Shown here piece by piece: positions 16,380 to 60,968 of a DNA stretch of 64,000 nt; the stretch's first letter is position 1, and each line of letters begins with the position of its first letter. A program made the translations under genes and the position numbers. The stretch covers positions 29,939-93,938 of the forward strand of contig ADNK01001577.1 in the NCBI GenBank assembly GCA_000320545.1. Direction: 5' to 3'. The DNA comes from Bigelowiella natans CCMP2755 (Eukaryota > Protista > Cercozoa). Below the pieces are notes generated by a model that saw only the letters and a program-made list of their open reading frames with translations, did not search any database and was not told the DNA's origin.

Positions 16380-17719
16380 GATAACTAAGGGAGTCGATGA
16401 ACGTTGTCCAAATCCACTTTAAAACAAATGATTCTAGATGGGCATAAGGACTAGTGAGTCCGAGCGTTCAGACTGCACCGCGTAGATCTTCATCGAGCTA
16501 GTTGGAGCTCAGAATTTAATGATGAGACGATGCATATTCCATGTGCCGTGAGTATGTGTACAATTGTATTTTTGTAGTAAATAATTTTCGACACTTATTG
16601 CGATAATTAATTGACGAACGACATTTGCATGCATCTTGACGTTTGTGAGATCGAACCACATTGTGTAGGCTATGTGAGTTGCACAGCATAATATCGCAGC
16701 GCATGCGATGCATCGATGACAAACGAAAATGGAATGATACGATGTGCGCGCAAGCTAGATGCGTTGTGTTGCTCATAGTGACACTGCCACAAGTAGCATA
16801 GGCGAATTGCGCAATACAAGTGTTCTAGCAGGAGCTAGAGCCGAAAATTCTGACAATCATCATGCGGTGTGATCTAGCTGTGCATGCTAGTGCGGCCACG
16901 CACGATCAATAAGTGAACCTGACGTGACGACGCAATGAGATCGCGCACCTGAAACACACCACAATTGAGCACATGACCATCCTGATGGGCATGTAGCCGG
17001 GAACTCTAGGCATGACGAAAATTATAAAATGATCACGTACATATACGTGTAGCTGCGAAATTGCATGAGTGAAGTGCCTTCGAAATTTTGCGGGATTTGA
17101 CTTTAGGCCTCAAATTTTGTCACAAATTGACCTCCAGCAGATTCAAAAATTGAGTTTTTTTTCTCGATCTAAGCCAAAACGTATTTTTTGCACACAAATC
17201 ATGCAGTGCCGCTACATATTATAGGGAGCTAAAGTCCCTATACGTGTAGGCCGTCTACGACATGTGTACATCGTATACTTCACATGTACCCTTAGCTACA
17301 CATGTGCCGGGCTTAAAGTCCCTATAATATTGCTTCAATTCTTGCAGGAATCGAAACATGCGAAACCGTGAAATCTCCGGGTTTCGCCTAAAGTTTTGGG
17401 CTACACTGCGCTCCAACAATTGCATGCATGCTTCAGCAGGTCACCATGCATCACTTGATGAACACGCACGGCACCTCCGCTCATGATTTGCACAGCTACA
17501 TGAGGATGGAGACCATTGAACAAACATAATTTGATTCATTACATCCTTCTTACATTTGGCATGTTGATTGTTATTGCATATGTGCGTTGAGAACCGCACG
17601 CACCAGCCTCTGTACACAGCCACCTTATCATTCACAAAAATTAAAAATACTCGTAATGGGCCGGAAAATCCGATTTTGACAATGCTAGTCGTTATAGTTG
17701 GATGACAAATTGGGACCCC

Positions 17720-20128: not shown

Positions 20129-21712
20129 ATGGTTTCGAAGCTTTTAGTTAGACGATTCAAAAGGCTTCCAGGTTCTACATCCGGTTATTCGCACGCTCAT
20201 AAAGCTTGGAAAGAAAATTTCAATCGCTTTAAAGAACTACATTATGGTTGGGTGCACAGTGACAACCGCCTTGCTGAGCTTGAAAAAAGGATCCAGCAAA
20301 GAGAAGATGGGATTGAGAACACCTCGACTGAGTTCAAAAACATTGAAAAATTGAAGGAAGAGTTTCAGGTTGTAGCGAATGAGGCGAAGGAGAAGCTGCA
20401 AAAATCAAGAGACTATAGAGAGGTCGTTCTAGAATCAGCATACGAGACGTGCTGCCGTATCCAAGACAGGGAAGTTTGGTGGAAGCCAATAGATCCACAA
20501 AGCATAACAACAGCAAATGAAGTAATAGTCAGTAGTTCAGCAACCTCAGCAAATGATAAGGAGTCGTACAGTTTGCAAAAATTGAGACAGATCTGCAACT
20601 TGGTCCTCCAGCCAGCTGCTGATGGTTTTCATCTCGTCGATTTCAGAAAGGAATTTTTTTTCTCAGAGTTCTTGCTTTTACCTTGTTCGTATTTTCAATC
20701 AGTACGTTTTATCGTCGGACCCATAATATTGTCAGAGACAAAAAATGGATGTTTCAGTGAGAAGCAAATGGCGAAAGTTTTCCAGGATGTTCTTACAATA
20801 CATCATAATGCAATTCATCGAAGAAGATTCGGAGCCATGCTTTGGGACGGACAGTATGGTCAATGCCTTGAAATAGCACCTGCGCCTCGTGGATTCAAAT
20901 GTATTCGGTCTCCTGTGTTGGACAGTACGAAGTCAACGGATAGGCAGCTGTTGGTCGGTTTTTTGTCTTCAAGTGAGACGTGGGGATGGAACACCTACAA
21001 AAGCGTAGAAAAATTAGGTTGCAAGGAACCATTTGGCATTGGAATAAGTGCCATAGTATTCGAGCATATCCACAGTGATGGTATTGTGAAGGTTCAATTT
21101 CATGGATGGGAACATAGCATTCATGAGGAGCGGGAAATCTTGCGCCAATTGGAGAACATGAAATCGGACTTAATTCCAAATTTGAGCGAGTACGACGAGG
21201 ATGGCAGCGATCACCTTGTGATGCACCCCATAAGATATCCCACAAGAGAAATAATTCCATTATCTCATGTCGCAGCTTTGGTCATTGGTTGTCTTAAAGA
21301 GTTACACCAAGAAGGATACGTTCACTACGACCTGAAACCTGAGAATCTAATGTGGAAATACGATGCGAATGAAGTTTCGATGGAAGAAAATGAACTTGCA
21401 ATTGTAGACTTTCATACCATGCGAAAAATGAAAGATCGCTTTGTTCCTAGACATGGAACACCTACGTTTACCGCAGAAGAGGTGCATATCGCAGGATTGG
21501 AGGAAATGTCATCTCTCCGTCTCCGTCGCATGATTTGGAAACGATTGTCAAAGTTTTGTTATTTGTTGTCTTTGCCTAGGAATGAGGCTTTGTCATTTCA
21601 TAAAAAGACGGGAAAATTAGCAACAGTTCCCTACAAGCTGATCAATTTCTGGATATCCAGGCTGGAAGATAGTGCTCCATGGTCATGCATGCTGTCGGCA
21701 GCTCGATCATGA
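20129..21712 (+). pseudogene. Intronless coiled-coil plus protein-kinase ORF (Crinkler/FunK1-like), frameshifted near the 3' end
   Basis: GIGISAIVF (Gly loop), IVKV, HEEREIL, GYVHYDLKPENL, IVDFH, HGTPTF. Subdomain IX HDLETIVKV lies in another frame at ~21530 and is followed by stops. Confidence 0.72.
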
Positions 21713-22638: not shown

Positions 22639-25600
22639 TCAGCTCCGGAGGAAATTTATCTTTCTAATACGCATGGTGAAGATCTTCCGCGTGCGGTGCG
22701 CAACGAACAGAGCACGGGAGGCTTCCCGATCGTCCTTAACAGCTGTGTGGTCAACTTCGTATATTTGCATGCCCCTTCGGATGCCTTGCGCCTCTGCCTG
22801 CGAATCCGCATCCACATTCATGACGATGAGTCGCTTGTATGAGAACCCAACGTAGCCGGCCGTGAACATGTAAACGTCCTCATTCGCTTTCTCAGCACTA
22901 TTCGGCGCCGCGCAGCAACACCATGCCAGGGGAAGGAAGCACAGGGCCTCGAGAATGGCAATCTGGAGGATGCGGAAGCAAAAGTCCTGTCCGAAGGACA
23001 GGAACGTGCTCTCCAGCCAGACCGCCGCATTGAATTTCATCTTCCATGATAGCACAGAGGTGATGAAGCAACAGCCTAGGATTACAGTGATTCCCAGCGC
23101 GAAGCCTATCCTGTCCCATTTCGTCCACACGTGATTGTCATCAGGCTCCTCCTCTTCCCGAACGCCCTCTCCTGCTTTGGACCTGCTGGACCTGGCGGGG
23201 GTGAACACCATGTTGCCGGTGCGCTTCGATACAAACATCTTGCGTTTGCGCCGAAGCTCCTTCTTTTCGCGATCATCACTTAAAACCCCTTCTCCTCCTC
23301 CTCCTCCTCCTCCCCCTAGATTGAATCGTTTGCTACTGCTTCCCCCGTGCGATGCCAGCAAGTTTTGGTTGGAGGTCGTAGGTACATCTGACACCTTTGG
23401 AGAGGACTCCTCGCTTGGGTTGCTGCCTTCAGGACCGCTAGTAGGAGTAGCCCCTGAGCAGAGAGATATAGATAGGCAGATATCGGGCAACCACACACGA
23501 AAACATAAATAACGAAAGATTAGGTACTTTCTCTTCCATACATTTCAACCGCATAAGTAGCATCCCAAACTCTCCCTCCCCCCTTTCCTCTTTCTCTCTC
23601 TTTCTCTCTCTGCTTCCTACAACAGTAACCTGGAAGAGAAAAGTTGTGGTTTTGCAGGTTGAGCTCAAGCCTGTCGGCCTGTGAGTCAGCTGAGTGATCT
23701 TCACTCCCAACAAGCACCTCATCCGATACAACCGTCGATGAAAGCTCCGGGTTCGCACTGCGTTTTTGCTCATGACAATTACGGCGTCCAGATAATTCGT
23801 TCGGTCTGGAGAGCGCGGATTTTGCTGCTGCTTCCCGTCCCTCCATGGCCTTTCTCTCCTTGGCGGGGAGCGCCGGCAACACGCCGCCAGCAATTGTGCG
23901 CGATCTCGCCTTAAATGGCTCTGCTTCATTAGAGTCATGAGTCTCGGAGCTTGCCGGGAGAACGTATAGCAAGCCTGCCTCTTTGGCTGCTGATTTTGCT
24001 TTATCTTCCCTCTCCCCCTTCGATTTTGACAAGAAGTTCTCACCGCCAGTGGCTGCAACGGCTCCGGTCGTAATGGCGAGGCCCAGGGACCTAGTGTGCT
24101 TTGCATCTCCTCCATCTTCATCACTGTCAGATGATTCGCCTTGATCTTTGTTGTGCTCATCGTCGTCAGCTTCGTCCAGATTATCATCGCCGTCCTCCTC
24201 CTCGGCGTCCATCCCTTCCCCGTCGTCATCCCCGCCCCCCATGTCCTCGATCATCAGCTCTCCGCCAAGGAGTCCGGAGAGGAGCAGCATCCAGCCGAAA
24301 CAAGAGGAAAGATGGTCCTGCCCGACTACGCTTACCGCAAGATGCTTTGGAACATGACGACGAAACACCGTTGTCATCGTGATGGGAATCGGTAGTGCCA
24401 TTAACATCGCTATAAGAGCAGTAGAGACCCCCACGCCCATCATAGGCAGCTGCTGCTCTTGCCCGACTAGCAGCGCGCACAAAGCCATCGTGTTGAAAAC
24501 CAGCACCGTGAGGATGAGAATGCGCTTCATGGAGGTCACGAAGTCGCCGGGATGGCGAATGCACAGAGCCATCCACGGGTGCTTCCTCCGCAACGACCAA
24601 TACGAAACCTCCCTGAAGGTTTTGAGCGATCTTGCCATGCTCTGCACTCGGATCTTGCGCTGGTAGTTGAAGTCTCTCCAGAAGTCCACGGAGAAGTTGT
24701 CGTCGCTTGATTGGATATGAGAGTCGTAGAAGTACGTGGCCACGAGCGCCAGGACGGCTAATCCGATGATGGATATCGAGGCTATGAATACCGTATTTCC
24801 AAGCGAGAACACGTCCTCGTTTACATCGTCCTCACCGAACGTATTGACGCCGACACTCAATCGCATGTGCACGGAAAACATCGTCAGGTGCGACGATTTG
24901 CAGTTAATCTGCTGCTCATTACCCGACGCCGTCGCGTTAGTTTGCAAGCCGCTTTCGGACCACGACTTAGACGTTTCGTCCCAGAATACGCAGGTGGGAG
25001 CACGGGGGCCATTTACTGATAATGAGGAGGCTGCAGATGGCATTGCGCCAGCCGCTGCTGGAGTAGCAAGAGAAATCCGAAAAGCGTCGGATGAGTCCAA
25101 CCCGGTCACGTTGAGTATCTGGCCTTCCTGCGTCTCAAGCTCCACGGCCATTGTTCCACCTATATCACTCGCATTGATTCGCTCTTGATTAGCCGTCTTC
25201 TCCGCGTACAGCCCCCCCGCCCCGCCAATCGACACCAGACTCACTCCCAAGCTTCCATCGTCGTCAGAGGAGGAAGCGGCCGAGGTGGAGGCGCTACGAA
25301 GTATTGCCAGGAGGGCGCTTTCGCTTGGCAGCTGAATAGAGGAGTTTTGGCTTGTGGTATAGCGTTTCTCTCCCAGAGATGCTATTGGAAGCCGTTGCGT
25401 TAGAACCTCCAAGATAGAAGAGCTGATGGTTTGTGCCTCCTCCCCTGTCTTCGCATTCTTTAAGCTGCCTCTCGCCAGCTTCGAGAGGCTAGTCTCCACC
25501 TGTAGATGTTCAAAAGGAGAATGAGTTTTCAATAATACAAATCCCCTGGTGGGGCGCGAAAGCAGGAGAAAGTCAAGAGAAATGACGAGCCTCACGTCCA

Positions 25601-27473
25601 TCTTACGCTATGTGAATGCGGATGAGATGTAGAATGTGTGTTGCTATTTTAGAAGTCGTTTGTGTCTCCGCCGCTGCCACCGCCGGAGTCGTATCGTTAT
25701 CTATCTTCCAACCAAAATCGCTAGCTTAAAACTCACCTGTTCCGTAAGAGCAGTGCGCTGGCCTAAGGCACCATTCTCATCTTCACTGTTTTGAATGAAG
25801 GAAATGACGCCGCTAACGGCGGAAGCGATGTTGGTGGAAATCTCGTCGGAGAACGTATTGAGCGCGTCGTCGTTGAGAGTCTCAACCGCGCTGATGATTG
25901 ATTCGCACGCCTCTGCATCTAGCTCGCTCGGCCCCCCGCTCGAGTCCGTCTGCGCGGCACTACGAGCCATCTCCGAAGGCAGCCTGACCTGAAGTTCCTC
26001 TGTCCCAAGTTTTCGCGCGCTTAAGTACGTTTGCAGCGTAGATGCCATGCTGCGCCGAATACTCACCCTCGTGGCGGTGTTGACCGCGCTATCGCTTGCT
26101 CCTTCTAGGTACGATGCGAGGCCGGTCATGACCACGGCCGCTGCAGCGGGGTCTCCAGAGAGGGCGCTCTCGTTCATAGCCTTCTCAAGATCTGAGATTT
26201 TAACGGGCGTCAGCACCGGCTGCGTGACGCTCACCGAAACATTGACCGGCGCTGCGAACGCGCGGTAGTAGTCCGCAACGTGAATTCTAATGGTGAGGGG
26301 GGAGGGTGTTCCAGGGTTGGCTGCTGCCTTCGCGGGGGAGGGCAGCAACGTGCTGCAGCTGGAGTAGACGCCAAGAGGGCAGAGTATAGACGGAAGAGCC
26401 GTCTCCGTTCCGGTAGTCCTTTCGGGAAGGAGGAGAGCTTCAAAGGCATATCTGATTGGAACGTCAGTATCTGCCCAGCCGCTGCACGAAAAGGTGAATT
26501 GCGTCTCGAGGGCGTCCCCAGAGCTCCTGTCGCTGCTGCATGCGCCGCCGGTTGGGGCGCTGTTGGTTGTGAAGGCTATGGTCGCGACGGAAGAAGAGCC
26601 TCCGGCCAGAGCTGTCGTAGTGGCCGAGAACACGTAGGAAGTGCCCTGTCACATAGCAAACGATTCCGGGGGCATGCGTGTTGATATTAGTATACGCGCA
26701 TTGCATGTACCGGGCTTCCCATGAACTTACGTGATGCGAATTCGCTCGTTAAAAAATATTTAAGCGTGGGCTTGCGCGCGCGCGTGTGTATGTGTATTTA
26801 ATTGTCAAATCCCGACTAACAAGTGCCTCCTCAGCCTAGTCTTCCCCCCCCTCTCTTCATACTACTACTACTACTACTACCGGAAGCAGAGCATTCGGTC
26901 TGAACACAAGCGAAGGGGAGTTGATGCCGGTCCTCAGCGTTTGACTCCTCGTCGCACCGTCGTTGAGGTCCAGCCCGCCAGCGCTGCAGCCCCACACCAC
27001 ACTCAGCCTACTCACGGCAACGTTGTCCGATTTGAGAGTGAGCGAGATTTTGTCGCTTGCGGCAGGGGGGTTCGGTCCCGTGGCATCGATCTGGATGCTG
27101 ACGGTGGGTGCCTCTGACTGTGCGGCGAAGATGAGCTGATGTGCTTCGGAGCTGCGGGGCGTTTCGAGGCCCCTGCTGTCTTTGAGAGGGATCCCCGTGA
27201 GCTGCAAGGTGAGGCGATACTGCGTATTCGGCGTGAGGCCGTCCGATGGCACGTACGCTTTCAAAGGATTCGTGGCGTCCGTGGTCTATTGTTGGAGACA
27301 ATGGTTGTTTGATCATGGGCGCGGTTAGTGATAATCATTAGATGATGCGGAAAAACTGAAATATTATCAACCTAAAGGGGACCCTTGAGGACACTCATAC
27401 GTATAAATGAGGCCTCAAACACCTACATACCCCTCCCCCTCCAAGAATCCCCCGAACTCTCTCTCTATTTCTC

Positions 27474-27513
<40 letters not shown>

Positions 27514-29508
27514 GTACAAAATTTGATATATGTATCTATTTGAGGAGTCCCTCAGCAAAACCAACCACGGCTGGCGAACTGCCGCCGCCAAGAGCTTGAA
27601 GCGTCCAGTTTGCCAGCGGCGTCTTCGTCCTATTGGCAGGGTCAAAGGAGGCCTCCCCCGAAAAGATAATTTTGTATCCAGGGCTGCTGCTGGATGTAGC
27701 AACAGTCCTGTTCGCACCTCCTCGGATAGCAGCATAGACACTGCGCTGTCTCACAGCCAGGACAACGACCTTGCTTGAATTTCCAAGGAGCGTCGGCGAT
27801 TGCAAACCACCACCACCACCAGCAGCCGCAATAGCAATATCTTCGGACGATGCGGAGACTTCAAAAGCGTAACGCTGACCCATGCGCAGGTTGCTAGGGG
27901 CTATGCTCAGCAATGAGGCGGACTGTGATGAGGCGAGGGTGATGATGTGGTCGCTAACGTTACTGGCAAACTGGGTTCCCAGAAGCAAATCCGAGCTTCC
28001 GAACACTTGCCTCCACCCCCTCACCCCGGTGCGGACTAGGGCATTGCCCTGTAGGCACGGTGCAGGCGTCGCCGAAGCCGAGACCGATACCGTATCGCTT
28101 GCATCAACCCATAACATCTGCACTGCTGCATCACCAAGCCCCCCCCCGAGTGCGATTCTAGGCTGTTTTATGCACTCTGACGGTGCAGTTGTCGCCGGGG
28201 ACGCAGTGGCCGGATGGCTCGTGGGCGAGGCCGTCAGTAAAGCGGGGGAGGATGTTGCTGGAGACGCGGAAGGAGACGTCGAAGGAGCGTCACTCGGAAA
28301 TGCCGTAGCTGGAGATTCCGACGGGCTGCTGGTTGGATTTTGTGAAGGATTGGTCGTTGGGTGTGTGGTACTGGGCGATATCGAAGGACTTGTGGTTGGC
28401 TGCGCACTGGGGGACACCGAAGGGCTTGTGGAAGCGACCGGCTGAGAGAGGGAGACGAAGGAGCAGGGAGTTAGTTGTGGGCCGGTGGGAATCAGAAACT
28501 TCACAATGCGATTGCATTGGCAATTGAGAGAAAAAGTATTTTCCAGGAAAAATGAAAAAAATAAGAAACAAGTGACGCTATCCCAGAATGGTAAGCTTCT
28601 CGATAGCGTTTTAGATTTGGGGTCGCAAGAGACAGGTTATTATGAATATCATTTTGGAAATGCACAATGAATAAATCTGCAAATAAATTCTGACGGAATG
28701 AAATTCAGCCGAGAGAACTAAAATAGCATCGTTTGTTTGGCAGCATGAATTTTTCATCCCGCACAGGTGAATAAAGTCAACAGGAAAAGTGGGAATCAAC
28801 TTTAAGTACGAGCATTCGATTATAAGCCATGTTTTGTGCTGACTCAGCTACCTCGCAGACGCATATTTTACTTATTGCATCGGTATATGAGCAATTCAAC
28901 GCAACCCCTCGATTACAGTATCTAATAAAAAAAGGGAAAATGGCACTGAAACATTTGCAACTGAGTGTAAAAAACCGTGACCCTGTCGCGAAGGAGACAT
29001 GATACGTTTGTATGGGGAAAAGTAGCACCAAGTATGCTTCTTTAATACTTACCGTTGCATCCCAGAGTAGTCATCATCGTAAGATTCTTTGCATTGCATC
29101 TTACCTCCTGACCAGGTGGTGCAGATAGTGGTGCAGGTATGCTTTGAACTGTCCCAATCATAAACCTCACACTCTGTGGCGGATTCAGCACACTTTTGGC
29201 CAGCGACAGTGCTGCTGAAGGATATATCGACCAAAGTGAATTCTGTGATGAGATCGCAGGCGCCTGTTGGTACGATGGAAGAGATTATAAAAAAGGAGAC
29301 AATTAATCCAAAATGGTAAGTGTTCTCATGCCTAATCGTCAACACCAATCTCCCCATCACTCCTCGGGTGTTTCCCCCTTTGAATTGTAACTTCAGTGTT
29401 CGTACCCTTAATCTATTCGCTACATAATAATTCGAGACCTGCATCGGCTTCTGGTAGAGATAGGCAAAGCCAGAGAAGAAAGGCCAGCACCGACGCCATT
29501 TTCACCAT
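22639..29508 (-). CDS. Polycystin-1-like receptor: signal peptide, Cys-rich module, Ser/Thr/Pro stalk, REJ, GAIN/GPS, about 5 TM, C-terminal PDZ-like domain
   Basis: MVKMASVLAFLLWLCLSLPEADA; TxxPS repeats; REJ motifs (SGEASFDP; TNSAPTGGAC..GDALETQFTFSCSGWAD..PIRYAF); GPS PTCVFWDETSKSWSESG..CKSSHLTMFSV; RRKHPW..FVTSMKRILIL; PDZ-like GYVGFSY..VMNVDADSQAEAQGIRRGMQIYEVD. Confidence 0.82.
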
Positions 29509-29879
29509 GTGTTTTAGCTATCTAAATGCTGCTCTGTGCCACTGCTTGAAGATGGCGCTATGAGGTATGGGATGTGCTGCTGGATACAATACCAGTGTAG
29601 AAGACCTTCATCATGAGTGTAGAGCGTGTGGTGATACTACGAAATGATACATGTATACGGGATGGGGAGGGCGCAATGCACGATGTAACCGTAACATTCA
29701 ACACGCCGTTATTTTCTTACGACATGAGATTGTTAGAAATATTCACATGATTACAGGCATTTTCCTCTAGTTCGAACTACCTATTTCACAGATGATTTGT
29801 TGGGTTTGAACCCGCACAAAATTAGATAAACTAGTAAAAACATGTATTTCTCCTTGTCGCAGTGATGAAACGCCATCTA

Positions 29880-30950
29880 AACGCACAACCGAACCTAAAA
29901 ACATGCTGTGCTCCGATCGCTCCGTGAGTCAAATTCCGCCATGACAAGATGGAGTGGACAAGTCTGGCACCTCTGGCGATCCTTGTGATCATCCTTGTTG
30001 GGATCATTGTTTGTCAGCTCTGGAGCTGTGGTGCCCATTGAAATTGCTTCACTCGCATCGCTAGATCGGCCCAACTAGCCAACCAGTCACGTGCTGTTCC
30101 ACGCTAGCTAGCTAGTCAGCTAGCACGTGCGATGCCGCACTGTCTCTGGCAATTTGAGCCCTGGACCAGCAAGCGCCATTTAGCTAGCTAGACTAGCCAC
30201 CTAGCCATGCTGGCATTTGTGCAACGTGCAGATGCGTGCCAGACACAGATCTAGAGATGCCCATGCTGGCTAGCATGCGATCGATGGACACAGCTAGACA
30301 GCGTCGAAAGTTGCGATCGAAGGAGCATTCTGGCATTCTGTCTGCGTCATTGTGGGCACGTCGCGCATGCGCGATGCGATGCTAGGGTGAGCTAGTGAGT
30401 GTGAACAGCACGCATGGAGACGTTAGACACATGCATTCAGCACGCAGAGACCAAGTCTCCATGCACGCGGAAATGCTAGCATGTCTAGATGTGGCAGTCT
30501 AGCAGTAGTCCATCTAGCCAGTGCTGAGTGTGCTGCGCAATGCCGCTTTGCATGCACGTGCTAGCGTGCAGCAGACCACCACACCATGCCCCACATTTCA
30601 TTTCCCATCTGCCGTCAGTAGGGGAACGACACAAAATTTTTGAAATGAAAATTCACCTACTGACGACCTACTGCTGAACTGAATTGCTAGAATGACATGG
30701 CAAAATCGCACGAGCATGACATGACATGTCAAGTGCTCACATTTGATTTCCCATCAGCAATCAGTAGCAAAATGTGCGAAAATGCGCAACATGAAAGCTT
30801 TGCCTACCATGTGTTTTGTGAAAACGATCTTTGTTAAAAATGACATAGCAAAATCCACAGCAGAGCATCACGCCATCGCTACATCTAAAATTCTAGCCAC
30901 AGTAGTGTGCGCCTCACTCATCGCTAATGATCGCTTCAACCTTTCGGATT
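29880..30950. other. TpA-depleted, CTAG-rich hypermutated intergenic patch
   Basis: In 30061-30600, 23 TA by hand count: 20 in CTAG and 3 in NTAG. TG/CA and CpG are abundant. Confidence 0.85.
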
Positions 30951-30960
30951 TCTCTTAGAT

Positions 30961-33032
30961 TCATTTTCTAAGTACTTCCTGTAATTTACCCCAAAATCTT
31001 ACTGGATCGAGTTTTACGACTACGAACCTCAAGTGCTTATGCCAGGTTTTCTTCCACGCTTCCTGGTCAGATTTTGACACGTCTTTGTAAACGAAATTCA
31101 CACGGAATGTATGATGATGCTTCTCCAAAGTGTAGTAGTAAATCGTGACAACTTTCGTATACACAAGAACCTCGTCTTTGTGTTTGACTTTAAAGTCGTG
31201 AACATTTCCTTTAGCCATCTGATGCAGCACCTCAGCACTTGAAGCACCATCTATGTTTGTGTAGTTCGGAGGGCAAATGACCAGCGTGCTCGAATCCTTC
31301 AATTCGCGGATTTCCTCCAAGCACTTATTCTTTTCTTCCTTACTATTTTCGCGATGGTGAATCACTCGTTTGTGTCGACTAAATGAGACAGTGGTAGTCT
31401 TGCCTTTCAATTCTTCTGGTAAATGTGAGCCGACATGTCGGCCTTCAAAATTTCCCCCATTCTTTATGAGGTGAAACCACCTTCTTTCTGCCTCTAAACC
31501 AGACATACTTTCACTCTGCTTAGACTGTTCCCCGGCAAGCGCCCCTACCACTCTGGATTCTACATAAGGGCTCAGGAAATCCAGGACAAAATCCGAACTA
31601 GTGTGCGAACCGTCTTCAAGAATGGGGCGGATGCAGAACACGGAACTTGGTAAAGCGACATCCCTAGGTTGTATCATCTCCACGTTTTCGCCAATCTTGC
31701 CCTAAAACTTTCGCAACATGTGGTCTTGGGAGTCTTGAAACTTCTTGAACTTTTGCTCGTCCACAATGTGCCGCAATATCCCCCCGGCTATCTCGGATCG
31801 GCTTTTTAAGTCCTCGACAGTACAGTTTCCATCCGCCCCGCCACTCTCATTGTTTCCCGCAGAAATATCGTTGAATTCATCTTCTTGGATGACATCCGCA
31901 TACAAGGTGAGATCCCGCTTCTTCGTTCCGGCCTTAAGGAGTTTCTCGAATTGCTTCCACTCCTTATTGGGCGAGCTTGCCACTACCACAAAGGCTTTTG
32001 TGACGTTGACATTTAGGTGCCCGAATCCGTTCTCGGGATCGACGACAAGGTGTGTCGATTTAGAGTCAAATGCTTCCCAATCAGGATGTTCTGTCCATCC
32101 CTCGTCAAGAACTTTCAGTTTTTTGCAATAGACCCTTCCGCTTTGAACTTCCAGAAGGTATAAACATTTCTCTGGCACGGAATAGAACGCAACCTTCTCG
32201 TCATTTTCAAGCGCCACCTTGATGTACATTAGCAAAAAGGCCACACTCTTGGCTATACCACTTTGCCCAGAGAGTATACAGCAATCAATGCTCGACTTTC
32301 CCTCACGGTAAAGTTGATAACGTTCTCGAAATCTGCGTACTGCTTCTGAAAATGCCTTGCGGTAGAAAAGAAGGGTGCTTGGACCCCCGAATCCAACTAG
32401 CACGATGCCCAGGTACGAGGATGTTCTTCGTTATGCGCACAAGCTGCATTGCAGTCCCTTCTGTGAACGGAGTGTCTCTCAAAGCTTGGAAAAATTCTTC
32501 GACATCCGTGTCAATCTTGAATCGTTTGCCTGTGTATCCACGTAAAGCGGGACTATCAAACGATACTTAGAGAGGATGAGTCTAGTCACCTTTTGTTTTG
32601 CTTCCTCGTTCGTAATCCGATATGCTTTTGCGCTTCTCCCCTGAAATCAAATCACAATAAAAATTAGAACAATAGATTATTTGCACAGAGACATTGGGCA
32701 TCACCCCCCCCTCCGCTTTCCTCAAATTCCATGGCTGAACACACACGCAAAAATATCTCAGCACACCGATTGTTCCTCAGATGTTGACAAAATTCATAAC
32801 CTTGGGTTGCCTTTTCATATTTCTTTGTTATTTCCTCCAGCTTTGCCTTCTCCGCCTGGATTTCCTCGTCCAATTTACCAATAGCACCCTTGAGCGCCTC
32901 TTCTTTCTCCTTATTCTTCTCCTTTGCCCAAGCGATGCTCAAAGCTTTTCTTTCTTCCCTCAGTTCCAAGATTTCCTTCTTTGTAAGTTGGATCTGAATT
33001 CCCCATACCTCAGAACGCTGAGAACACATCAA
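30961..33032 (-). pseudogene. Crinkler/RHS-type P-loop NTPase plus REase-like protein, disrupted
   Basis: CILSGQSGIAKSVAFLLMY (degenerate Walker A), HLVVDP, VVVASSPN, IAGGILRHIV, then CPPNYTNIDGA..VLHQMAKG. In-frame TAG at 31702 splits ORFs 31702-32403 and 30961-31683. N-terminal coiled-coil exon ~32790-33032. Confidence 0.72.
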
Positions 33033-33319: not shown

Positions 33320-35020
33320 TCAAAGCTCCAGTCCAGTGATGGTGTCTTCGTACCCAGGTTTTACCCATTGATCCTCAAAGCCATCTTCAAATTCAATGTC
33401 CTGAGGAGTGTATTCACCAAATGCTGGGTAGGTCTGTTGATTATTTCGACTAAGATTGCAATCCACACAAGTTAATCTACAGTTGTTCCAGAGATGGGGT
33501 AGATTATTATCAATTCTATCCACAGAAACATCATCAGCAGTAAACTTACATTTACACAGGGGACAAAAAGGATATTTACCAGCAATTCTACTTACCCATT
33601 TATCATCAATATATTCTTCATCTTTCCAAGTTCTACCAGCTCTTTTATCTTGGGATTTATATGAAGATACTTTCATTCGTAGTTTTTGGGTAATCATACT
33701 TTCCTTTAATCTGTAGCATTCTTTATAGCTGTGCTGATATATTTGTATCTGTGAAAGGTCAGTTGAACGAGTTATAGCAGTCCAGAGCCACTTGCGATTA
33801 ATTCTACAGGTGTTAGCATCAATACGGTGATCGGGCCATCTACTGATAATCCTTGAAAACTATGACAGGTAGAGGCATATGATAATCTAAAATGCATACT
33901 AATTAATTCTATAGGAATTCTTATTTCTTCCATATCACATACATCTTGTATTACAATTTCTTTTTTGTTTACTTTGATAATTTCATAAGTGTAGTTCACA
34001 TATAGTTTTGGTTTCTTGTTATACTTTTTACATACAATCTCCATACCAGCATAGTAGCAAATACCATCTACATAAACTCTTTTTCTCGGTTTCTTTTGTA
34101 GGCTATGGATGTGCTTACCTACTGAACGGGATCTAAAGTTGTAGAAGGTAATATTGTTAAGTGTCTTTACTTTTTCCATACTTTTCACAATTTAAAATGT
34201 TTTTTTAATGCATCAAATGGTTTAGTTTTTACATCAAACATTTCTTGTTTTAATTGTGCGAGAGCATTTCTTTCCTCATTTGTTTTTACTCTCTTACACA
34301 TTTTGAGAGTCATGACATTAGGAAACATGGCATTCATAGCTTCAGTTGTTCCAACATCAAGGTCTTTGATGTCATCAAACAGATGTTTGTTTTCAATCGG
34401 ATCTAACTGACAAAGATCACCAGTAGCAACAAATTTTTTATCAGTGTGCTCATCCATGAACAACTCAATTTTTGACAGTTGATGTAGTGAATGCATGTGA
34501 ATCTCATCAAAGCAAACAACATCACATGGTGAAATGTCAAATTTTCCAATGCATTCACATTCGTTGTCATGAATGTTGAGACCAAATGATCTGTGATGAG
34601 TGATGGCATCGTGATCGCTGTTTTCTTTTGTGCTCTGACATGAGTTGTTGAATGGTGCTACGAACAGTGTTTTCTTTCCTTTGCATGTTTCAACTGAATG
34701 ACTCTCACCACTGCCAGGTGGTGAGGCATTCACAAGCATTCCATCATGCTCATCAAATGCATTTGTGATTTCTTCTGCATTTGTGATTTCTTCTGTATTC
34801 CATTCATTCATGATGTCAATCACATCAATGTCAATTGTTTTGGGTTCTGCCAGTCTAGCAGTTCATTTTCCAAAGGAACAAAGTGTTGACCCACAACTTT
34901 GGTTTTTTCTTCCAATTTCACACAACCGACATTTGCATTGAAATCAAAGTGAGGTTTGATCTCATCAACTTCATCTATTGCAACAATGCAATCAGTTTCA
35001 ATGGCTACACAGCACATTGT
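33320..35020 (-). pseudogene. Fragment of a virus/Polinton-like replicase: PolB-like (K)TDC end, SF1B (RecD/Pif1-like) helicase, HNH/Zn-finger endonuclease; three frameshifts
   Basis: VAIETDCIV; PGSGESH (motif I); VVCFDEI (II); ATGDLCQLDP (III); SYASTCHSFQGLS (V); KWLWTAITR (VI, shifted frame); CPLC..VSVDRIDNNLPHLWNNCRLTCVDCN. AT-rich and intronless. Confidence 0.8.
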
Positions 35021-35384
35021 TGCAAAAGCATGCTAGCCATGCCAGCATGCAATGCCAGAATGATCGACATTGCTGCAGCACGCTGCCACTTGTCACTTGC
35101 TAGCTTGTCCTCACCATTCATTTTTGTTTCATGTCATGATGTAAACGTCCAAAGGCTCACACCTAGCTCTAGAGCTAGCTAGTAGGTGCTGTTACATGTC
35201 TGCAACAATGAGACACATCCCGGTGTGCGCATGTCGCATGCAATAACGCGTGGCGCTGCGATGGTTTCAGCTCATCTAGTCATCAGTGAACTCATTTTGT
35301 GTGTTGATTCGAAATACAGGCCAACCAGCGTGTGCAATGTGTGGCCATCCGCGCATGGCATTGTCACTGTTGGCCATTGTGCTT

Positions 35385-35729
35385 TCATTCGGAACACACA
35401 ACGATAGTGTCGCCAGATGCTATTGGATATTGTCGCAAAGGTAATGATTCCCCATCAAGAACCATCGTGTGCCCATCCTGCAAAAAGGAACATCAGAAAT
35501 ACAACCAACGTAGAATGGTAAGAGACTGCTGCACGAACTCAGCACTCATGCCCTTCGTTTCAACGAAAAGGGGTCAGTAGACACACACTACAACAGAAAT
35601 CAATATACCCCATAAATATCATCAGTAATTGCAGTAGTGCTTTTCATTTTTATTTCCTCCGATATATTGGCTTCTTATTTCTAGCAGACGAGTCTACACA
35701 CTTGTGTGCGCCCCGCTGGTTTGTGTGTA

Positions 35730-49046: not shown

Positions 49047-50327
49047 CTATGTGTTGTAAGCATGATAAACATTAGATTTGGTCTCTTCGTCGCCATTCTT
49101 TTCCTTGCGCAGCATGTCCACATTCAAGTACCCCTTCTCCTTCCTGGCTAGTACCATGGCTGCTGCTGCTGCCAATCGAGCCATGACAAATGCAACTCCC
49201 ACAGCCGCAGGGGGAAAGGCATATGGAGAGTATGTATCAGCATTTTTCCTTAACAAGGTCATTTCCCTGCCTTTCCAAACAACACACACGCCGCATATAG
49301 ACGCAACAAGAGAGGTTGCGAGAATCATGGATCTCCAACGTAGAGGTATCGAGGGAGCGCTTCTCAAGGCAGCAGATGTGGCAGCCATCGCGACTGCCGG
49401 GCACAGAAATAGAGCAAACGGCCACCAATGAAAAGCCGCAGACAACAGGAGAATGCCGGCAAGGGCGCGGTGCATACTAACGAATTTCGCAGCGATAGCA
49501 TCGTGGCGTCGAAAGTACGCTACAGAAGTGTGTCCGATGAGAAGTAGGCAGGTGATCAAACCTGCCCAAAATATCAGGTTTTCGCCTCCATTCTTCAGAC
49601 TGAAGTCCCGGAGATTCTCACTAGAAACGTAAATTAGCTCTCCGAGGGCATGAATCGCCCCCCAGCGGCACGCGGACCAGCCAATTAGCTTGTGGATCGT
49701 GATGAGTTCTGACTTTGACCACCCTGTAAATTCGGGCACGATGTAGCTAGCTGAAGCGGGGAGAGCAACCAAAGATAGGTGCCAGGACAGAGGAAACGCG
49801 GCAGCGATGGATATGGCTAGAATGACTCGATAAGTGTTTTGCTGGTAAAACGGACTCGAAAGATAGGCTGCTGCAGGGACTGCAAACCAGAGGACTTCCG
49901 CCACCCGCCACACAATGAGAACTCCACTGCTCAAAGAGCTTCCATTATCGCTAGCTTGGGCAACTTCAGCAGCGACGTGAATTTGTTTGCGCTCATCCAT
50001 GTGCTTTGCGAGGAAGTGCGACGAGATGGAGAAGACGGCAAGTGGGGACACCCAGAGCAAGAACACAACCAGCCCAAACGTAGTAAACCCCAAAATTGCG
50101 CCCGGAACGAAACAAATGTCAGGGCCAAGAGCTGCCACGCGACCTCCATCACATTCCCAGGCGGGCCATTGATTGGTCAAGCCACCCACACCGCCAACAC
50201 CTCCGACGCTTTCGCCAAGGCGGTGCAAGGAGTTGCGAACGGGTTCGTAGAGCAAACTCCAAACGAAAAGGAGGACTACGCTTGCGCCTGAGACATTGAA
50301 GGCGGCCATGGGGCCCAAGACCTGCAT
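49047..50327 (-). CDS. Intronless multi-TM protein with ferric-reductase-like bis-heme transmembrane domain
   Basis: 426-aa ORF; His pairs ITIHKLIGWSACRWGAIH and VSMHRALAGILLLSAAFH; no FAD/NADPH-binding domain. Confidence 0.75.
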   Translation of the reverse strand: MQVLGPMAAFNVSGASVVLLFVWSLLYEPVRNSLHRLGESVGGVGGVGGLTNQWPAWECDGGRVAALGPDICFVPGAILGFTTFGLVVFLLWVSPLAVFSISSHFLAKHMDERKQIHVAAEVAQASDNGSSLSSGVLIVWRVAEVLWFAVPAAAYLSSPFYQQNTYRVILAISIAAAFPLSWHLSLVALPASASYIVPEFTGWSKSELITIHKLIGWSACRWGAIHALGELIYVSSENLRDFSLKNGGENLIFWAGLITCLLLIGHTSVAYFRRHDAIAAKFVSMHRALAGILLLSAAFHWWPFALFLCPAVAMAATSAALRSAPSIPLRWRSMILATSLVASICGVCVVWKGREMTLLRKNADTYSPYAFPPAAVGVAFVMARLAAAAAMVLARKEKGYLNVDMLRKEKNGDEETKSNVYHAYNT

Positions 50328-50849
50328 GCGGGCTCAGATGTTCCGGCGCCGCCCCCACTCGGGATGTTGTCTTCGATCGAGTTCTATCCGTCAGGGTCGC
50401 GAACGGATCGCATCGGACTCGCACATTGCGGGCTCGAGGAAAAATCACCTGCGTCATGGAATTTGGGTTGTCGCTGTCGGGTTGTTTGGCCGCAAATGAT
50501 GCTCATTGAAATAGAGTACGGGCTATCCTATCTTACTCTATTTCTAGTATTTTTCGATTACATACTTTGTCGTTCAACAAAAATTTAGCGTATTTTGTCT
50601 TGCTCATTGCTTCCGCCGGGGATTCTCGAGGATTCTCTAAACCCGTAGTGACGGCGAGCTTCTCACTCGCACAATGGAGGGGCATTAAAGCAAGTTCGCT
50701 GCATTGAAAGAAAAAGACGACATGATCGCGATCGTCTTTGTTGGGGACAGAGGTGCTGATTAGACAACTCACATTGTCAATGCATTGGGAACCCCGCTCT
50801 GAAGGATCAAGATGCCGCGAGGGCTGCGTTGGCAACGGAAGTGGCCCAT

Positions 50850-51830
50850 GTGGGAAGGAAGTTCTGCGGGCATCTTGCGTGCAGATTCCACAGCAGATTC
50901 ACATTGCATTTCAGACCAACCATGTTTCTGTGCTTTCCACGACTATCCATTCTCCTAAACGTGTTACAGGTGCGTGCAAGCAAAAATGTGCAATGTACAC
51001 TGATGGTTGCGCTGCGGAGATCACTGTGGATTGCGATTCGATCGAATTGCGTGCGTGTTCCGGTGGGACTGATCGTGTTCAAGCAGGCCTGTGCACGATG
51101 ATGCGCGATGATTCATCGCGCACATCGATCTGCTGACTGCTGTGCATTGCATCCATCATGTGGCAATGTGGCAGAGTTGATTATGTTGCAGCATGCATGT
51201 GCACAAAAGAATCACGCACACCAGCTACCGCACCACGGCACATGCTGAACAAGTGTTCTCTGCGGTCGTAGAATGAGCGATGCTTCTCAACATTCCTAGC
51301 TACAGCAGATTTCTATGTGCACAACACAAACTGACAAAACGTCAAAGAACATAAGGCTAGATGGCATAGAACAATGGACACAGTGACGTCGTGTGCAGAA
51401 TTCATGTGAATTGACATGTGCATGCATGGCATTGCATGTCTGTCATCATTATTGCATTAGATGCACATGATGCATCAAACTGATCCAATTTAGCAAGAAT
51501 CTTTGCCCAATTCGTGACAACACATTTGCGCATCATCACATATGAATTACGGACCACATGGTGAAAAGAGTAGTGCATCTTGTGTGCATGTTTGTGGAAA
51601 TGGCATGCACATGAGCTCATGGAGCACACGCGAGCTACAAAGCACAAGTGGGGTTCTTTGAAGCTAATATATAGAGAGCCATCGTTGTGCCTTGCAACCG
51701 TGATAATTAAAGACGTCTTCTTGAACCCAAGTAGAGCGACCCTGACACAACAACACACCATGTCATGTCGATGATTACATATGTGATGCAATGGGGACAA
51801 CGTACTATTCATGTGCTTCTCTTGTGTGGA
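50850..51830. other. TpA-depleted hypermutated intergenic patch
   Basis: Dense TGCA/CATG/GCAT words, few TA, CpG kept; spurious His/Cys/Met-rich ORFs. Confidence 0.7.
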
Positions 51831-51836
51831 AGGGCT

Positions 51837-53922
51837 TCATATGAAGCCCTGTTTCAAGAAGAGCACATATTTGACATCCATTAAGTATTGAGACAGGCTC
51901 GACACAATGATCATTAGCAATGGGAGTATTGTTTTCACGATCTCACAGATTGGGGGGCCAAAGATGGAAACAGCCGCGAGAAGGCCAAACAGCAACGATT
52001 CTGGTCCCGACGACAATGAAGACGATGAGGATGTAGGTTCACTGCCCCTTTTACACTTTTTAACGTCCTCCTTTGAAGATGTAGGTACGCCCTTCCCCTT
52101 CCCAACGGCCGCTCCTGCGGTTTTGACGTCTACAGGACTGCTGTTGTTGTTGTTGCTGTTCTTCTCTCTCTTCTTCTTCATGTTGCCGCTCTGACCTTCT
52201 GCCAGCTTCTCATTCTGGTTATCATGCACATGCGGGGGCGTATATAATGGGTCAATTTGCTGGTATTTTTCGAGTTGGAGATAGGGAGGAGGGAGAGTGA
52301 GAAGAGGGGGTGGGATGTTATGCTTATGACTGATAAAACTTCAATTCATTGGGCGCATGCCCGCAGAAATATCAAGGTCTAAAGTTGGTGTGACTTTTCA
52401 AATGATTTTTATTTTTCCTCATGCCCTTTTGCTCGTCTTAAATGCACACATCCTTTCCACACGCACAAGAGAACCTCCTATTCCCACTAATTCTAGTGCT
52501 ATCAGCGCCCTCGTTTTGTTTCCTCGGCCGATATACTTCTTTTATGGCGTCTATCCACTCTCTCCCTCTCTCAATATATACAGTTATACTTTCTAGTGTT
52601 TACCTTTTGGTCCGCTCTAAATATTTTTGTGAGCTCCATATAGATATCCTTTAAATAACAACATGGACATCTGACCCCAACCCCGATGTCCTCCTTTGAT
52701 TTTAGTATGGCCCTCCATTTTCTTTCTTCTTCTTCGAGTTTACAAATCCATTTCAGTTTTCCTTCTTCATTCTCCCTCGCAGCTTCCTTAAGCTCTTCCT
52801 TCTTATGTTGGAATTCTATGTAGAGGGTTCATGTTGATGTCTGTTCAAGCTATCACCCCTGGTTAGTTGTTTTTTTAGATACCTAGACCAATTCGTTCCC
52901 TTTCTATTTCGAGCTTCAGATATAACTGCGGGATAACCATCGAGGTGATAATTCTTTAGTTCAACAAGGCAAGTAAACCAATAATACGAAAATCCAAGAC
53001 AGTGTGCGTGTGATGAGTATGCTTCTGTACTTTTTGAAGATCTATGTAGTCCTGCCGGAGATGCCAGACCTCCCTACTGCTGCATAATGGACGATCCGAC
53101 ATCAAATATAGCTTCGAGTTCTTCCGTTTAGAAGGAGGGGAGTTCCCGTTACCCTGGTTGGCAACACATTAATTGTAGTGTAGAGTTATAATTTAAATTC
53201 GTAATTTGAACCACGCTTAAACCCTCACTGAGGACGATGCGTGCGTAAAACCTCACTGTAAACGGACAGTTTTGTCACAATCTTCTAACACTTGCACTTA
53301 CCGCACGTGGTTTGTCTTTCTGGGTGCCCTCGATTATAGGCCCGTTTTTCTGGTTGTTTGAAGAGATAAATTTGGCGATTTCCTGTCTGTTTTTTATCAT
53401 GATGCAGCTGGAACGTCGTTCCACAGGAAGTTGTGACTTCTTTATTGGATCAGATCCCAGCGGTGCATTATTGACTACTGGTAAACCTTTCCCCTCCTTA
53501 TCAACTGGCCCGCCATCCTTCTCTTCACTCGGTTTTGAAAACTCTTCTTCCAGCGTGTAAATCTCATCAAGATCAGGGAGCGCATCAATCTTATGCTGGT
53601 CCTCTGTATGCTTCTTAATGATCTCATTCACCGCTTTCATAACGCCTTTGAACTCTAGTTCGCCCCCTTCACTTTTTTTTTTTTGGGTGTCTTTGCCATA
53701 CTGAGCTTCTATGAGCTCGGCCCACTCATTGAGGTCTCTCTCTCTGAGGTATCCTTTCATACCTTTGATATTTAACGAAGGCCCCTCTACAAACTTCTTC
53801 AGTAGGTCTAAGTGGACTGCGCGGAAAAAATTCACAGTAACATCATACTGAAGGTCCAGCATCCCGGATCGGTAGCTTGCCAGCTCCACAGCGTTCCACC
53901 CTCTTGGCGTATGCACCTTTTC

Positions 53923-54462: not shown

Positions 54463-54971
54463 TTTTTCCAAATTTCTGTGAGCGTTACGCCTTGTTTAAT
54501 ATGCTGCGACAATGAATTCCACCAATTTTCTTGAGCATTCCGCATTGTTTCATGCGCTGCGACAATGAATTGTGACGCAGCCGTCAAGAGTCTCTTTCTT
54601 GTTCGTCGTCAATCGTTCTTGATGAGCTGGCTCCCATGCGGTTCTTGCGATCGAAGGCTGTGAGACAATGGACACATGGGACATGTGTAGTTCACGCAGC
54701 GAAATGATTCAGCTAGTCAGCGCAACGTTCCTGCTCCAGTTTGCTGAGCTTGCTGACAAACCTGCACTTGTTTCCATGATGGCTTGGGAGCATTTGTGCA
54801 AATCAAATCAATGCTGCGCTGTCTCGAACAACAACTCATCTGGATGCTGTCATTTTGTCTACCTCTAGCTGGACCTTGCCTGATCGCAATCATCTTTTTG
54901 TGGTGCACCTGTCGGTGGCTCGGTCAAAGCTCACTAGCTAGCTAGCTCACATGATGCCATGACTGCCATGC

Positions 54972-55297
54972 TGTTGCGCGTAAGGTGTTCACAGGCCGAG
55001 GCGCTACGTGCACAAGTAGGCAGGGGGGGGGAAAGGCACGTTTGCTTCCTTTTGAAGAGTTGTGTTTATTTTTATTAAAGATTATATTTTTATTAAATCG
55101 TGCACTGCGTAATCATTCGCGAAGCTTTCGCGAATGCCGCCGCACGTGGGGCAGCACACTTCCGGTGTGCTGCCATGAGTCCCGCCGGAACCCACGTGCC
55201 TATGCTGTATTAATATCTACGTTATCTATATTCTATATCCGCGACAACCCCTTTGTTGTCGCACGTGACTTGTGCCCGCGTAGTGGTACGCGCTACA
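54972..55297 (-). repeat. 3' LTR
   Basis: TGTTGCGCGTA...TACGCGCTACA (10/11 terminal inverted repeat); direct repeat of 60095-60420. Confidence 0.97.
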
Positions 55298-55305
55298 CCT
55301 CCCCC
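55298..55305 (-). other. Polypurine tract
   Basis: Minus-strand GGGGGAGG abuts the 3' LTR, with a longer AAGG-rich run just upstream. Confidence 0.85.
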
Positions 55306-55348
55306 AAGTCACGTTGCTCCTTCCTTCCTTCCTTATTCCCTTAGACCT

Positions 55349-60055: not shown

Positions 60056-60071
60056 TGTTAGTCAAATCGTT

Positions 60072-60089
60072 TCCCGTGTGTGGAAGCCA
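60072..60089 (-). other. tRNA primer-binding site
   Basis: TGGCTTCCACACACGGGA, 5 nt inside the 5' LTR boundary. Its complement ends in GCCA and resembles a Glu/Asp-type tRNA 3' end; tRNA identity not certain. Confidence 0.75.
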
Positions 60090-60094
60090 AAGGT

Positions 60095-60420
60095 TGTTGC
60101 GCGTAAGGTGTTCACAGGCCGAGGCGCTACGTGCACAAGTAGGCAGGGGGGGGGAAAGGCACGTTTGCTTCCTTTTGAAGAGTTGTGTTTATTTTTATTA
60201 AAGATTATATTTTTATTAAATCGTGCACTGCGTAATCATTCGCGAAGCTTTCGCGAATGCCGCCGCACGTGGGGCAGCACACTTCCGGTGTGCTGCCATG
60301 AGTCCCGCCGGAACCCACGTGCCTATGCTGTATTAATATCTACGTTATCTATATTCTATATCCGCGACAACCCCTTTGTTGTCGCACGTGACTTGTGCCC
60401 GCGTAGTGGTACGCGCTACA
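60095..60420 (-). repeat. 5' LTR
   Basis: Identical to 54972-55297; minus strand holds a TA-rich promoter-like tract and three AATAAA signals. Confidence 0.97.
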
Positions 60421-60968
60421 ATGCCATGAATGAGCAAGCAATTCTGCCGCAGGAGACACATTGAGGAGACACAGTCATGTGTGTGCATGGACAACGCTAG
60501 AATGTGCTGTTGTACATCATGCCATGCATAGCATGTGTGCTACACATGATCTGGACTATGTTGTTACTGTGTCCACAAAGGACAATGTGAACGCACATGT
60601 GCTCAACACCATTTGAACTGAGTTGCTTCTCTAAATCACATTGAGCTAGCAGCAGAATGTTGGGTGAACGTTGGGTCTATGGTCAGCGAAATCCCTCATC
60701 TTCAATGTCCATTTGTTTGCATCCGCATCGTACCCTACCCATCCCAGCGGTGTCACCATGGACATGATGATGAATTACAATCGCCAAATGATCATGCTGT
60801 CAATTCTGCGTTTGCCTTTCTTCGCATATTCTGCCACAACGAACACGTACACAAGTGAATATGCATAAATAGAAATATGTATGTATGTGCGCGGTAAAAA
60901 AAAAAATCGATACTCTTTTCACTGTTTATTTTTGTTCTGTTTTTTTTTTTTTTTTTTTGAGAAAGAGA

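Follow-up and report, generated by a model that had tools for sequence, protein, structure and literature searches.

In the genome of Bigelowiella natans CCMP2755, a broken, virus-like helicase gene has lost most TA dinucleotides from its 5′ half, where they now read TG or CA. The gene lies in a stretch of 64,000 nucleotides of contig ADNK01001577.1 (hereafter the window, to which all coordinates refer), and its composition almost certainly reflects TpA hypermutation of foreign DNA, with A:T→G:C changes on both strands. The process itself is not new: it was described for B. natans in an April 2026 preprint, on the basis of mutation-accumulation data and with ADAT2 as candidate enzyme (Mettrop et al., bioRxiv 10.64898/2026.01.13.699255). 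The initial annotation had proposed an undescribed genome defence, and the locus is thus no discovery. In the openly accessible literature searched, only this 2026 preprint describes the process. The annotation's core proposal, that virus-like DNA was hypermutated from A:T to G:C specifically at TA and on both strands, with changes to conserved residues, was upheld by the analyses described here.

Recounting gave 4 TA in 34441-34860 and 38 in 33841-34140 (Fisher p 1.4e-11), exactly as first reported. The TA-depleted, TG/CA-enriched patch spans 34195-35420 (no strand assigned; patch limits here and below were set by eye from composition scans), with a TA observed/expected ratio (O/E) of 0.28, a CA/TG O/E of 1.88, a core at 34340-35010 and a graded edge at 34200-34350. 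In 100-bp bins, TA O/E was 0.84-1.12 from 33500 to 34200, 0.52 at 34200 and 0-0.38 from 34300 to 35000. TA O/E thus falls from ~1.0 to 0.1-0.2 across ~150-200 bp at 34200-34350, within one gene, and eight of the nine TA surviving in the edge zone (34193-34337) are TTA-flanked. Within 34501-35000, TG O/E was 1.79 and CA O/E 2.25. Beyond the gene, the patch ends in a more eroded, CTAG-rich non-coding tail (35010-35420, no strand; 7 CTAG in 411 bp, GC 0.49).

The loss of TA is visible in the encoded protein. The 212-aa ORF at 34185-34823 contains no Tyr, 12 His and 8 Cys, the 65-aa ORF likewise lacks Tyr, and the 138-aa continuation of the gene has 9 Tyr, all as initially counted. The broken motifs GSGE, IETDC and DEIHMH are each present, and each is located at a TG or CA whose reversion would restore TA, in agreement with the claim that conserved motifs break at this dinucleotide. 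The Walker A Lys is read as Glu (ggt GAG; 34704-34706, minus strand), a second K>E replacement lies in the xTDC motif at 34999, and the Walker B region DEIHMH (34491-34499, minus strand) carries, from its sequence, two Tyr>His replacements via TA→CA. Homologues share neither feature, a point on which the annotation had staked its reading: the Walker A Lys is found in 143/143 homologues with the motif (152 examined), Tyr content across the 152 has a median of 5.7%, and among 97 matches, 70 have Lys and 2 have Glu immediately before TD. Events on both the coding and the template strand were found, yielding both TG and CA products as predicted, and the TA rule turned a sense codon into a stop in 0 cases, again as expected.

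Three further claims of the initial annotation fared less well. Intact A-runs hold for the coding patch, where AA+TT stands at 215 per kb vs 203 in the unmutated part, but fail in the most eroded, non-coding stretch at 29900-30600, which has 0 runs of at least four A and 67 AA+TT per kb. TAG is not spared, since its A does mutate: TAG→TGG accounts for 3/32 inferred TA changes at the protein level and 2/18 at the DNA level, and the surviving sequence is CTAG. Lastly, an 18-bp tandem repeat had been cited for a TA versus CA difference between its copies. The duplication consists of two identical units (34758-34775 and 34776-34793; together 34758-34793, no strand) and gives a 6-aa insertion; the difference exists with a 7-bp partial unit only and reflects a Thr codon ACA vs an Ala codon GCA (Val in the homologues P0001 and P0005), so it does not represent a mutated repeat copy.

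The gene itself is preserved as four pieces in 33401-35008 on the minus strand, with frameshifts between them near 34853, 34190 and 33823, one of which lies in the unmutated part. By tblastn, the pieces align to aa 724-1262 of the metagenomic proteins P0001 and P0002 (1200-1290 aa) at 42-66% identity; the gene is truncated 5′ of about 35010 and only its 3′ 40% is present. The first piece (34853-35008) is the hypermutated end of a putative inactive family B polymerase-like domain with the xTDC motif (tblastn to P0001 aa 724-775). It is followed by the hypermutated SF1B helicase core of the putative polymerase-helicase fusion (34188-34853), which contains the 212-aa ORF, matches AAA_30 (E 4.3e-07) and P0001/P0002 (tblastn, 54-56%), and in which the TA rule explains 26/44 replacements. 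Past the frameshift, the helicase continues at 33823-34191, where TA O/E is about 1 and the TA rule fits 1/12 replacements, and past a further frameshift the helicase C-terminus and a putative HNH-like zinc-finger nuclease follow at 33401-33820 (66% to P0002 aa 1122-1262, with the pattern CxxC...DRIDN...CxxCN); neither of these pieces is hypermutated.

The homologue family comprises 507 representatives at E <= 0.001, and a 40-sequence family profile matched RecD2, RecD and Dda structures and, weakly, PacI (E 0.28). No polymerase match was found in Pfam or PDB, the window retaining only the xTDC end of that domain; the nearest clusters to P0002 aa 480-790 have DNA_pol_B_2 in 11-25% of their members (score 0.94-0.95). 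By these sequence matches, the gene is identified as a putative 5′-truncated, frameshifted polymerase-helicase-HNH fusion of a polinton-like virus. In the available part of the relevant paper (PMC5499653), a fusion of an inactive pDNAP, an SF1 helicase and an HNH domain (the Tlr1-like helicase) is described from polinton-like viruses, Tlr1 and transpovirons, and the polinton-like viruses of B. natans carry its HNH form. The homologues of our fragment share with the Tlr1-like helicase, as portrayed there, a length of ~1200-1400 aa and an SF1B helicase, accompanied by a putative polymerase-like part and, at the C-terminus, a putative nuclease. The fragment differs in being a frameshifted 3′ 40%, and genes for a capsid, a packaging ATPase or an integrase were not seen among the ORFs listed near it. 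A scan of viral contigs gave no relative of the fragment, and a metagenome scan gave three distant loci (33-43% identity), which were used solely to control for composition and to stand in for ancestors. Judging by summed contig depth, 30600-34500 is present several more times in the genome. An RNA run (X21, ~6% of the run) had almost no reads on 34496-35107, which is too weak as evidence of silencing.

The direction and context of the changes were examined in the protein at positions identical in P0001 and P0002. The mutated part showed 53 replacements; A>G/T>C accounts for 36 of them, and 30 of those 36 lie wholly in TA, an excess that is smaller than it appears because 61% of the G/C sites of the patch lie in TG/CA, so that the DNA comparison is the cleaner test. 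The TA rule fitted 30/53 replacements in the mutated part vs 1/16 elsewhere in the gene (p 3.7e-4), and replacements needing G>A/C>T numbered only 5/53. When single rules were fitted to 44 replacements, CG-based rules explained at most 2, AA→AG only 2 and GA→GG none. We also applied 16 dinucleotide reversion rules, guided by P0001/P0002 in the same way for every rule, and scored the products against a profile built from 60 long homologues. TA reversion performed best, raising the score from 216 to 258 bits in line with the rise that had been foreseen for TG/CA→TA reversion; the runner-up reached 238 bits while sharing most TA-rule sites, CG rules gave 216-218 bits, and P0001 itself scores 288.

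At the DNA level, other copies were compared with 34180-34580. Among the 40 differences listed out of 69 there were 31 transitions and 9 transversions, and where the window has G/C and the other copies A/T, 18/21 listed transitions fell in TA (null 0.31, p 3e-7). The other copies thus point to TA, in place of the CG or context-free origin that the annotation had named as the outcome against it. Transitions in the opposite direction fell in TA in 1/10 listed cases, or 4/10 when neighbouring differences are allowed. Outside the patch, 13/29 listed inter-copy transitions lay in TA (null 0.19; 40 of 407 differences listed), indicating that the copies carry a lighter signal on top of ordinary divergence. 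TA is still abundant in many near-identical copies of the 3′ helicase and of the adjacent repeat.

The patch is present in genomic DNA, as sequencing runs reproduced it. Run contigs X1, X3 and X9 matched 34346-34922 (X9 to 34801), 34894-35700 and 29600-30596 with 0 other letters, so that part of a second patch (below) was likewise unchanged in three runs, and X2, X4 and X5 matched 34346/34358-34580, again with 0 other letters. As the six runs share one species label, are represented by contigs and include one that is possibly the source of the assembly, they exclude a single-assembly error without counting as independent strains. The compared patch parts were unchanged across all six, with few TA left there to change and with contigs that drop rare variants.

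Other copies of the gene bear the same signature. The closest named paralogue, B. natans Bigna1/144381 (P0003, 72%), shows 107 TA-type replacements vs 1 in reverse and has kept 1/51 conserved Tyr. P0003 covers eight Tyr sites that became His or Cys in the window, and the copies differ at five of them, all His in the window and in P0003 four times Cys and once Tyr, which fits separate mutation with either strand first. Across 150 homologues, the median TA-type fraction was 0.09, and only P0003 (0.61), P0005 (20/40, a JGI record) and P0119 (7/14) stood far above it. P0119 comes from Norrisiella sphaerica (EukProt); being a 69-aa fragment with a protein-level signature only, its 7/14 TA-type changes are a lead.

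Four more patches were delimited in the window, none with an assigned strand. The second (29900-30900) has 20 CTAG vs 3 other TA sites, and its surviving TA in 29900-30600 are nearly all CTAG. The third (50640-51900) has a TA O/E of 0.43 and a CA/TG O/E of 1.72, with no Pfam match in 4/4 ORFs scanned; over all patch ORFs scanned, 8/8 gave none. The fourth is split into a left half (54500-54971, TA O/E 0.27) and a right half (60421-60800, TA O/E 0.43, CA/TG 1.97), and the fifth (16600-17620) is weaker (TA O/E 0.72, CA/TG 1.49). Low-TA windows at 50001-50500 and in GC-rich exons were rejected as patches for want of a TG/CA excess, and in the exon at 20129-21712 CA/TG was no higher than 1.21, in keeping with host genes being spared. 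A host ORF at 49047-50327 has a letter-for-letter counterpart in EukProt. No repeat copies of the patches were found inside the window, where the sole long repeat is an LTR pair.

This pair belongs to an intact, unmutated Ty3/Gypsy element (54972-60420, minus strand) that interrupts the fourth patch. The element has identical 326-bp LTRs, a TA O/E of 1.11 and a 1568-aa ORF encoding RT, RNase H, protease and integrase, and an ATGC target-site duplication links the patch halves around it. The fourth patch was mutated before the Ty3 insertion. A younger element left untouched inside an old patch, together with a half-mutated helicase, would point to episodic, local tracts. The Ty3 element also provides an internal control and a relative date, and so far its location in an old patch has left no marks on it.

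Beyond TpA itself, a wider sequence context was apparent. The base two positions 5′ of the mutated A was C in 0/32 protein-level events (expected 12-14%, p 0.008-0.04) and in 1/18 DNA-level events (p 0.16), the two sets overlapping, which suggests that the mutator may avoid CTA, at most as a disfavoured context. Across patches, CTAG O/E was 2.22 vs 0.68 in reference regions, and nine other TA classes dropped to 0.21-0.81. CTAG reached 17.4 per kb in the most eroded non-coding parts, and the highest value from 11 models with 4 stand-in ancestors was 6.8; the real ancestors were possibly CTAG-rich, so this excess stays unexplained by the models tried. Trinucleotide simulations did not separate CTA from TAG models, their outcome depending on the ancestor; a next-codon comparison on P0003 (A-in-TAG 1/3 vs T-in-TAG 2/15) had too few events, and a count of the TAH pattern across the whole window was uninformative. 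A bolder reading, which we consider doubtful, is that the mutator reads beyond TpA, with a C two bases upstream blocking it and a slower second reaction feeding CTAG as the end state of old targets. Such a code would misfit ADAT2 and might point to a DNA-editing enzyme or pathway not yet known, one that would parallel RIP on adenine and be common to chlorarachniophytes (Norrisiella).

As to mechanism, we lean towards a chain of events that centres on an adenine deaminase. The host process known from B. natans would likely act on integrated foreign DNA, and deamination of the TpA adenine to inosine is its likely candidate chemistry. Because half of one gene was hit, the target may be picked by regional state, such as silenced chromatin, instead of by sequence family. 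Inosine would be copied as G, so that TA ends as TG or CA depending on the strand hit first, and a C two bases 5′ of the A might slow the reaction, so that CTAG lasts longest. The local tracts of 0.4-1.3 kb, the graded edge and the differing outcomes among gene copies are observed. Sequence alone cannot tell A-directed from T-directed change. As the 5′ truncation and the frameshifts also broke the gene, the mutator is only a candidate for having killed it in defence.

An error-prone polymerase of the Pol eta or iota type could leave similar tracts by placing G opposite template T while filling gaps linked to repair or silencing, with TA as a strong and AA as a weak target. Pol eta has a WA signature, with frequent AA hits and transversions. 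Patches with a graded edge would be expected of such filling, A-runs are lost in the most eroded patch, AA→AG makes up 2 of the 3 listed window-derived DNA changes outside TA, and an excess of AGCT (11.8 per kb observed) is approached only by models with AA→AG (7-10 per kb). We nevertheless judge this explanation unlikely, as the A/T→G/C changes of Mettrop et al. in two hypermutable regions were all on TpA, the A-runs of the coding patch are intact and the AA→AG rule explains only 2/44 replacements.

It is rather improbable that the altered base was instead thymine or a methylated adenine, that is, a silencing mark at TpA in the form of a miscoding oxidised thymine, or of 6mA that is then deaminated, following a RIP-like logic. 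5-formyluracil does miscode and 6mA can be deaminated, A→G and T→C are symmetric in the sequence, terms in T give a simple rule in which the T of TAG is rarely hit, and regional, episodic targeting suits an epigenetic mark. However, known eukaryotic 6mA occurs at ApT, not TpA, the patches show no depletion of AT (O/E 1.08-1.41), and a literature search on Bigelowiella with TET and JBP found nothing.

Acquisition of the mutated half by recombination or gene conversion from a mutated copy would make the boundary a crossover, altering how the boundary is read and not the process. Several copies of the gene exist in the genome and the frameshift at ~34190 lies beside the boundary, but TA falls off gradually, over 150-200 bp, and leaves TTA-flanked survivors at the edge, as for a partly mutated margin, and we regard this origin as very improbable. 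An assembly or base-calling artefact, ordinary CpG decay or a native composition of the element is refuted: although the runs share one species label, CpG is low in the gene (O/E 0.35-0.47) and the metagenomic relative L002, one of the three, has a lowish TA O/E of 0.48, the six runs are identical over the compared parts, CG rules explain at most 2/44 replacements with CpG equally low in the unmutated half, and the Tyr and Walker A Lys of the homologues and a TA O/E of about 1 in the other half of the gene speak against native composition.

The locus bears on several wider questions. A natural, targeted A:T→G:C mutator of DNA in a eukaryote is rare and touches on genome defence, adenine base editing and the annotation of GC-rich, hard-to-annotate algal repeats, in which gene models like Bigna1/144381 are fossils without Tyr and rich in Cys and His. 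As handles, the locus offers a boundary within a gene, a Ty3 insertion that can be dated and, for candidate enzymes, a CTA/CTAG context. The CTAG over-representation, the Norrisiella homologue signature and the intact, unmutated Ty3 element in a patch go beyond the main text of the preprint, which makes no mention of CTAG, TAG, trinucleotides, context, thymine or a polymerase and covers no other chlorarachniophyte in its analysis.

Mettrop et al. (10.64898/2026.01.13.699255) followed 15 B. natans mutation-accumulation lines, in which 231/302 new mutations fell within two viral inserts; 230 of these 231 were A→G/T→C, all on TpA (TpA→TpG/CpA), at a rate of ~6e-7 per site per generation, about 1000-fold above background. 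They further reported 124 TpA-poor, CpA/TpG-rich clusters, drew a comparison with RIP and proposed ADAT2 (Bn78255) as the enzyme. Their main target was single-copy, so repeat pairing is not required (10.64898/2026.01.13.699255). The helicase patch resembles this process in its TpA→TpG/CpA changes on both strands, its virus-derived target and its occurrence in local patches. Under the single-window cut-offs of the preprint (1-kb; Rho TpA <=0.43, Rho CpA+TpG >=1.52), 7 overlapping windows (starts 34001-34601) and 3 others (starts 50601-50801) qualified among 631 scanned. Unlike the loci of Mettrop et al., however, the patch is a fossil of ~1.2 kb that covers half a gene and is too short for three-window clusters, and none of the patches in the window forms a cluster by their rule of three consecutive windows.

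Two better-known systems resemble the process in part. Like RIP, it consists of dinucleotide-specific transitions on both strands of mobile DNA that erase coding capacity. RIP creates TpA and stops and lowers GC, whereas the process here is opposite in chemistry and direction, removing TpA and raising GC without introducing stops. RIP is moreover a C→T process (Mettrop et al., discussion; 10.64898/2026.01.13.699255). A Rhizoctonia paper on RIP indices (PMC7884421) is not relevant here. With hypermutation of viral RNA by ADAR, the patch shares A→G clusters and a 5′ U/T preference, yet ADAR acts on dsRNA, and the target here is a DNA-virus-type gene hit on both strands of genomic DNA. ADAR prefers UAG, and a 3′ G is not favoured in the patch (3/32). 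A 5′ T/U preference is typical of TadA-type enzymes. It is typical of ADAR as well (Mettrop et al., discussion; 10.64898/2026.01.13.699255).

Closest in enzyme class is amphioxus ADAT2/ADAT3, a natural A→I editor of DNA of the same class as the candidate of the preprint. In the accessible portion of its description, amphioxus ADAT2 is nuclear, converts A to I in DNA and prefers GAA (for A), TCG (for C→T) and hairpin loops (PMC10354150). The window, in contrast, shows a TA context and no C→T excess. The GAA/TCG preference of the amphioxus enzyme, as far as that portion documents it, would therefore count against a simple ADAT2 model of hypermutation in B. natans without excluding ADAT2.

Within the most eroded of the hypermutated, TA-poor patches (29900-30600, 35010-35420, 54500-54971, and 60421-60800), CTAG and runs of AGCTAG greatly exceeded expectation, an excess that was reproduced by none of the 11 mutation models run on four stand-in ancestors. 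In the graded margin of the patch on the polymerase-helicase gene fragment, eight of the nine surviving TA dinucleotides (34193-34337) were preceded by T on the plus strand, which hints at a rate order among TA contexts in which ATAT and ATAC would be mutated first. Inspection of the same fragment also revealed an apparent, diverged 8-bp tandem duplication (34846-34861), located at the same place as the frameshift that separates the polymerase-like end from the helicase core.

The patch flanking 54972-60420 is split by an intact retrotransposon of the Ty3/Gypsy type, whose two 326-bp LTRs are identical and which is bordered by an ATGC target duplication. It carries a single ORF of 1568 aa, whose product had no exact match in the protein collection searched. 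The element itself is unmutated, and its host site is an older hypermutated patch.

Near the helicase fragment, a multicopy element on the minus strand (30961-32403) carries two ORFs of 240 and 233 aa, and its further copies are 98-99% alike. The 233-aa ORF resembles P-loop proteins of the retrotransposon hot spot (RHS) type (Atlas score 0.95), which are connected as a family with Crinkler-like elements. A short repeat with internal direct repeats (30600-30900) is present in very high copy, at about 100x the single-copy level based on summed contig depth. RNA reads over this repeat break off into unaligned poly(T) at 30814, which suggests that a polyadenylated transcript from a related copy terminates at this position.

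Elsewhere, the window holds a single-exon ferric reductase-like gene (PF01794; 49047-50327, minus strand), the closest named relatives of which are dinoflagellate proteins (~41-42%), an ORF of 527 aa that encodes a partial kinase domain (20129-21712, plus strand), and a large multi-exon gene (22639-28504, minus strand) that by eye resembles an REJ/GPS (polycystin-like) membrane protein.

Among relatives of the helicase, one of the three metagenomic loci used as composition controls (L002, 1-2577) had a TA observed/expected ratio of 0.48, with two 500-bp bins near 0.3, and its low TA may reflect either native composition or partial hypermutation. The annotated B. natans gene model P0003 (Bigna1/144381; 932 aa), with one Tyr and 100 Cys plus His, is a hypermutated fossil, and Tyr-free gene models could serve to list such fossils. 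At the protein level, the homologues P0119 (Norrisiella sphaerica, EukProt) and P0005 (a JGI record) display the same Tyr>His/Cys, Ile>Val/Met, and Leu>Ser signature as the window, suggesting that the hypermutation process may also be present in other chlorarachniophytes.
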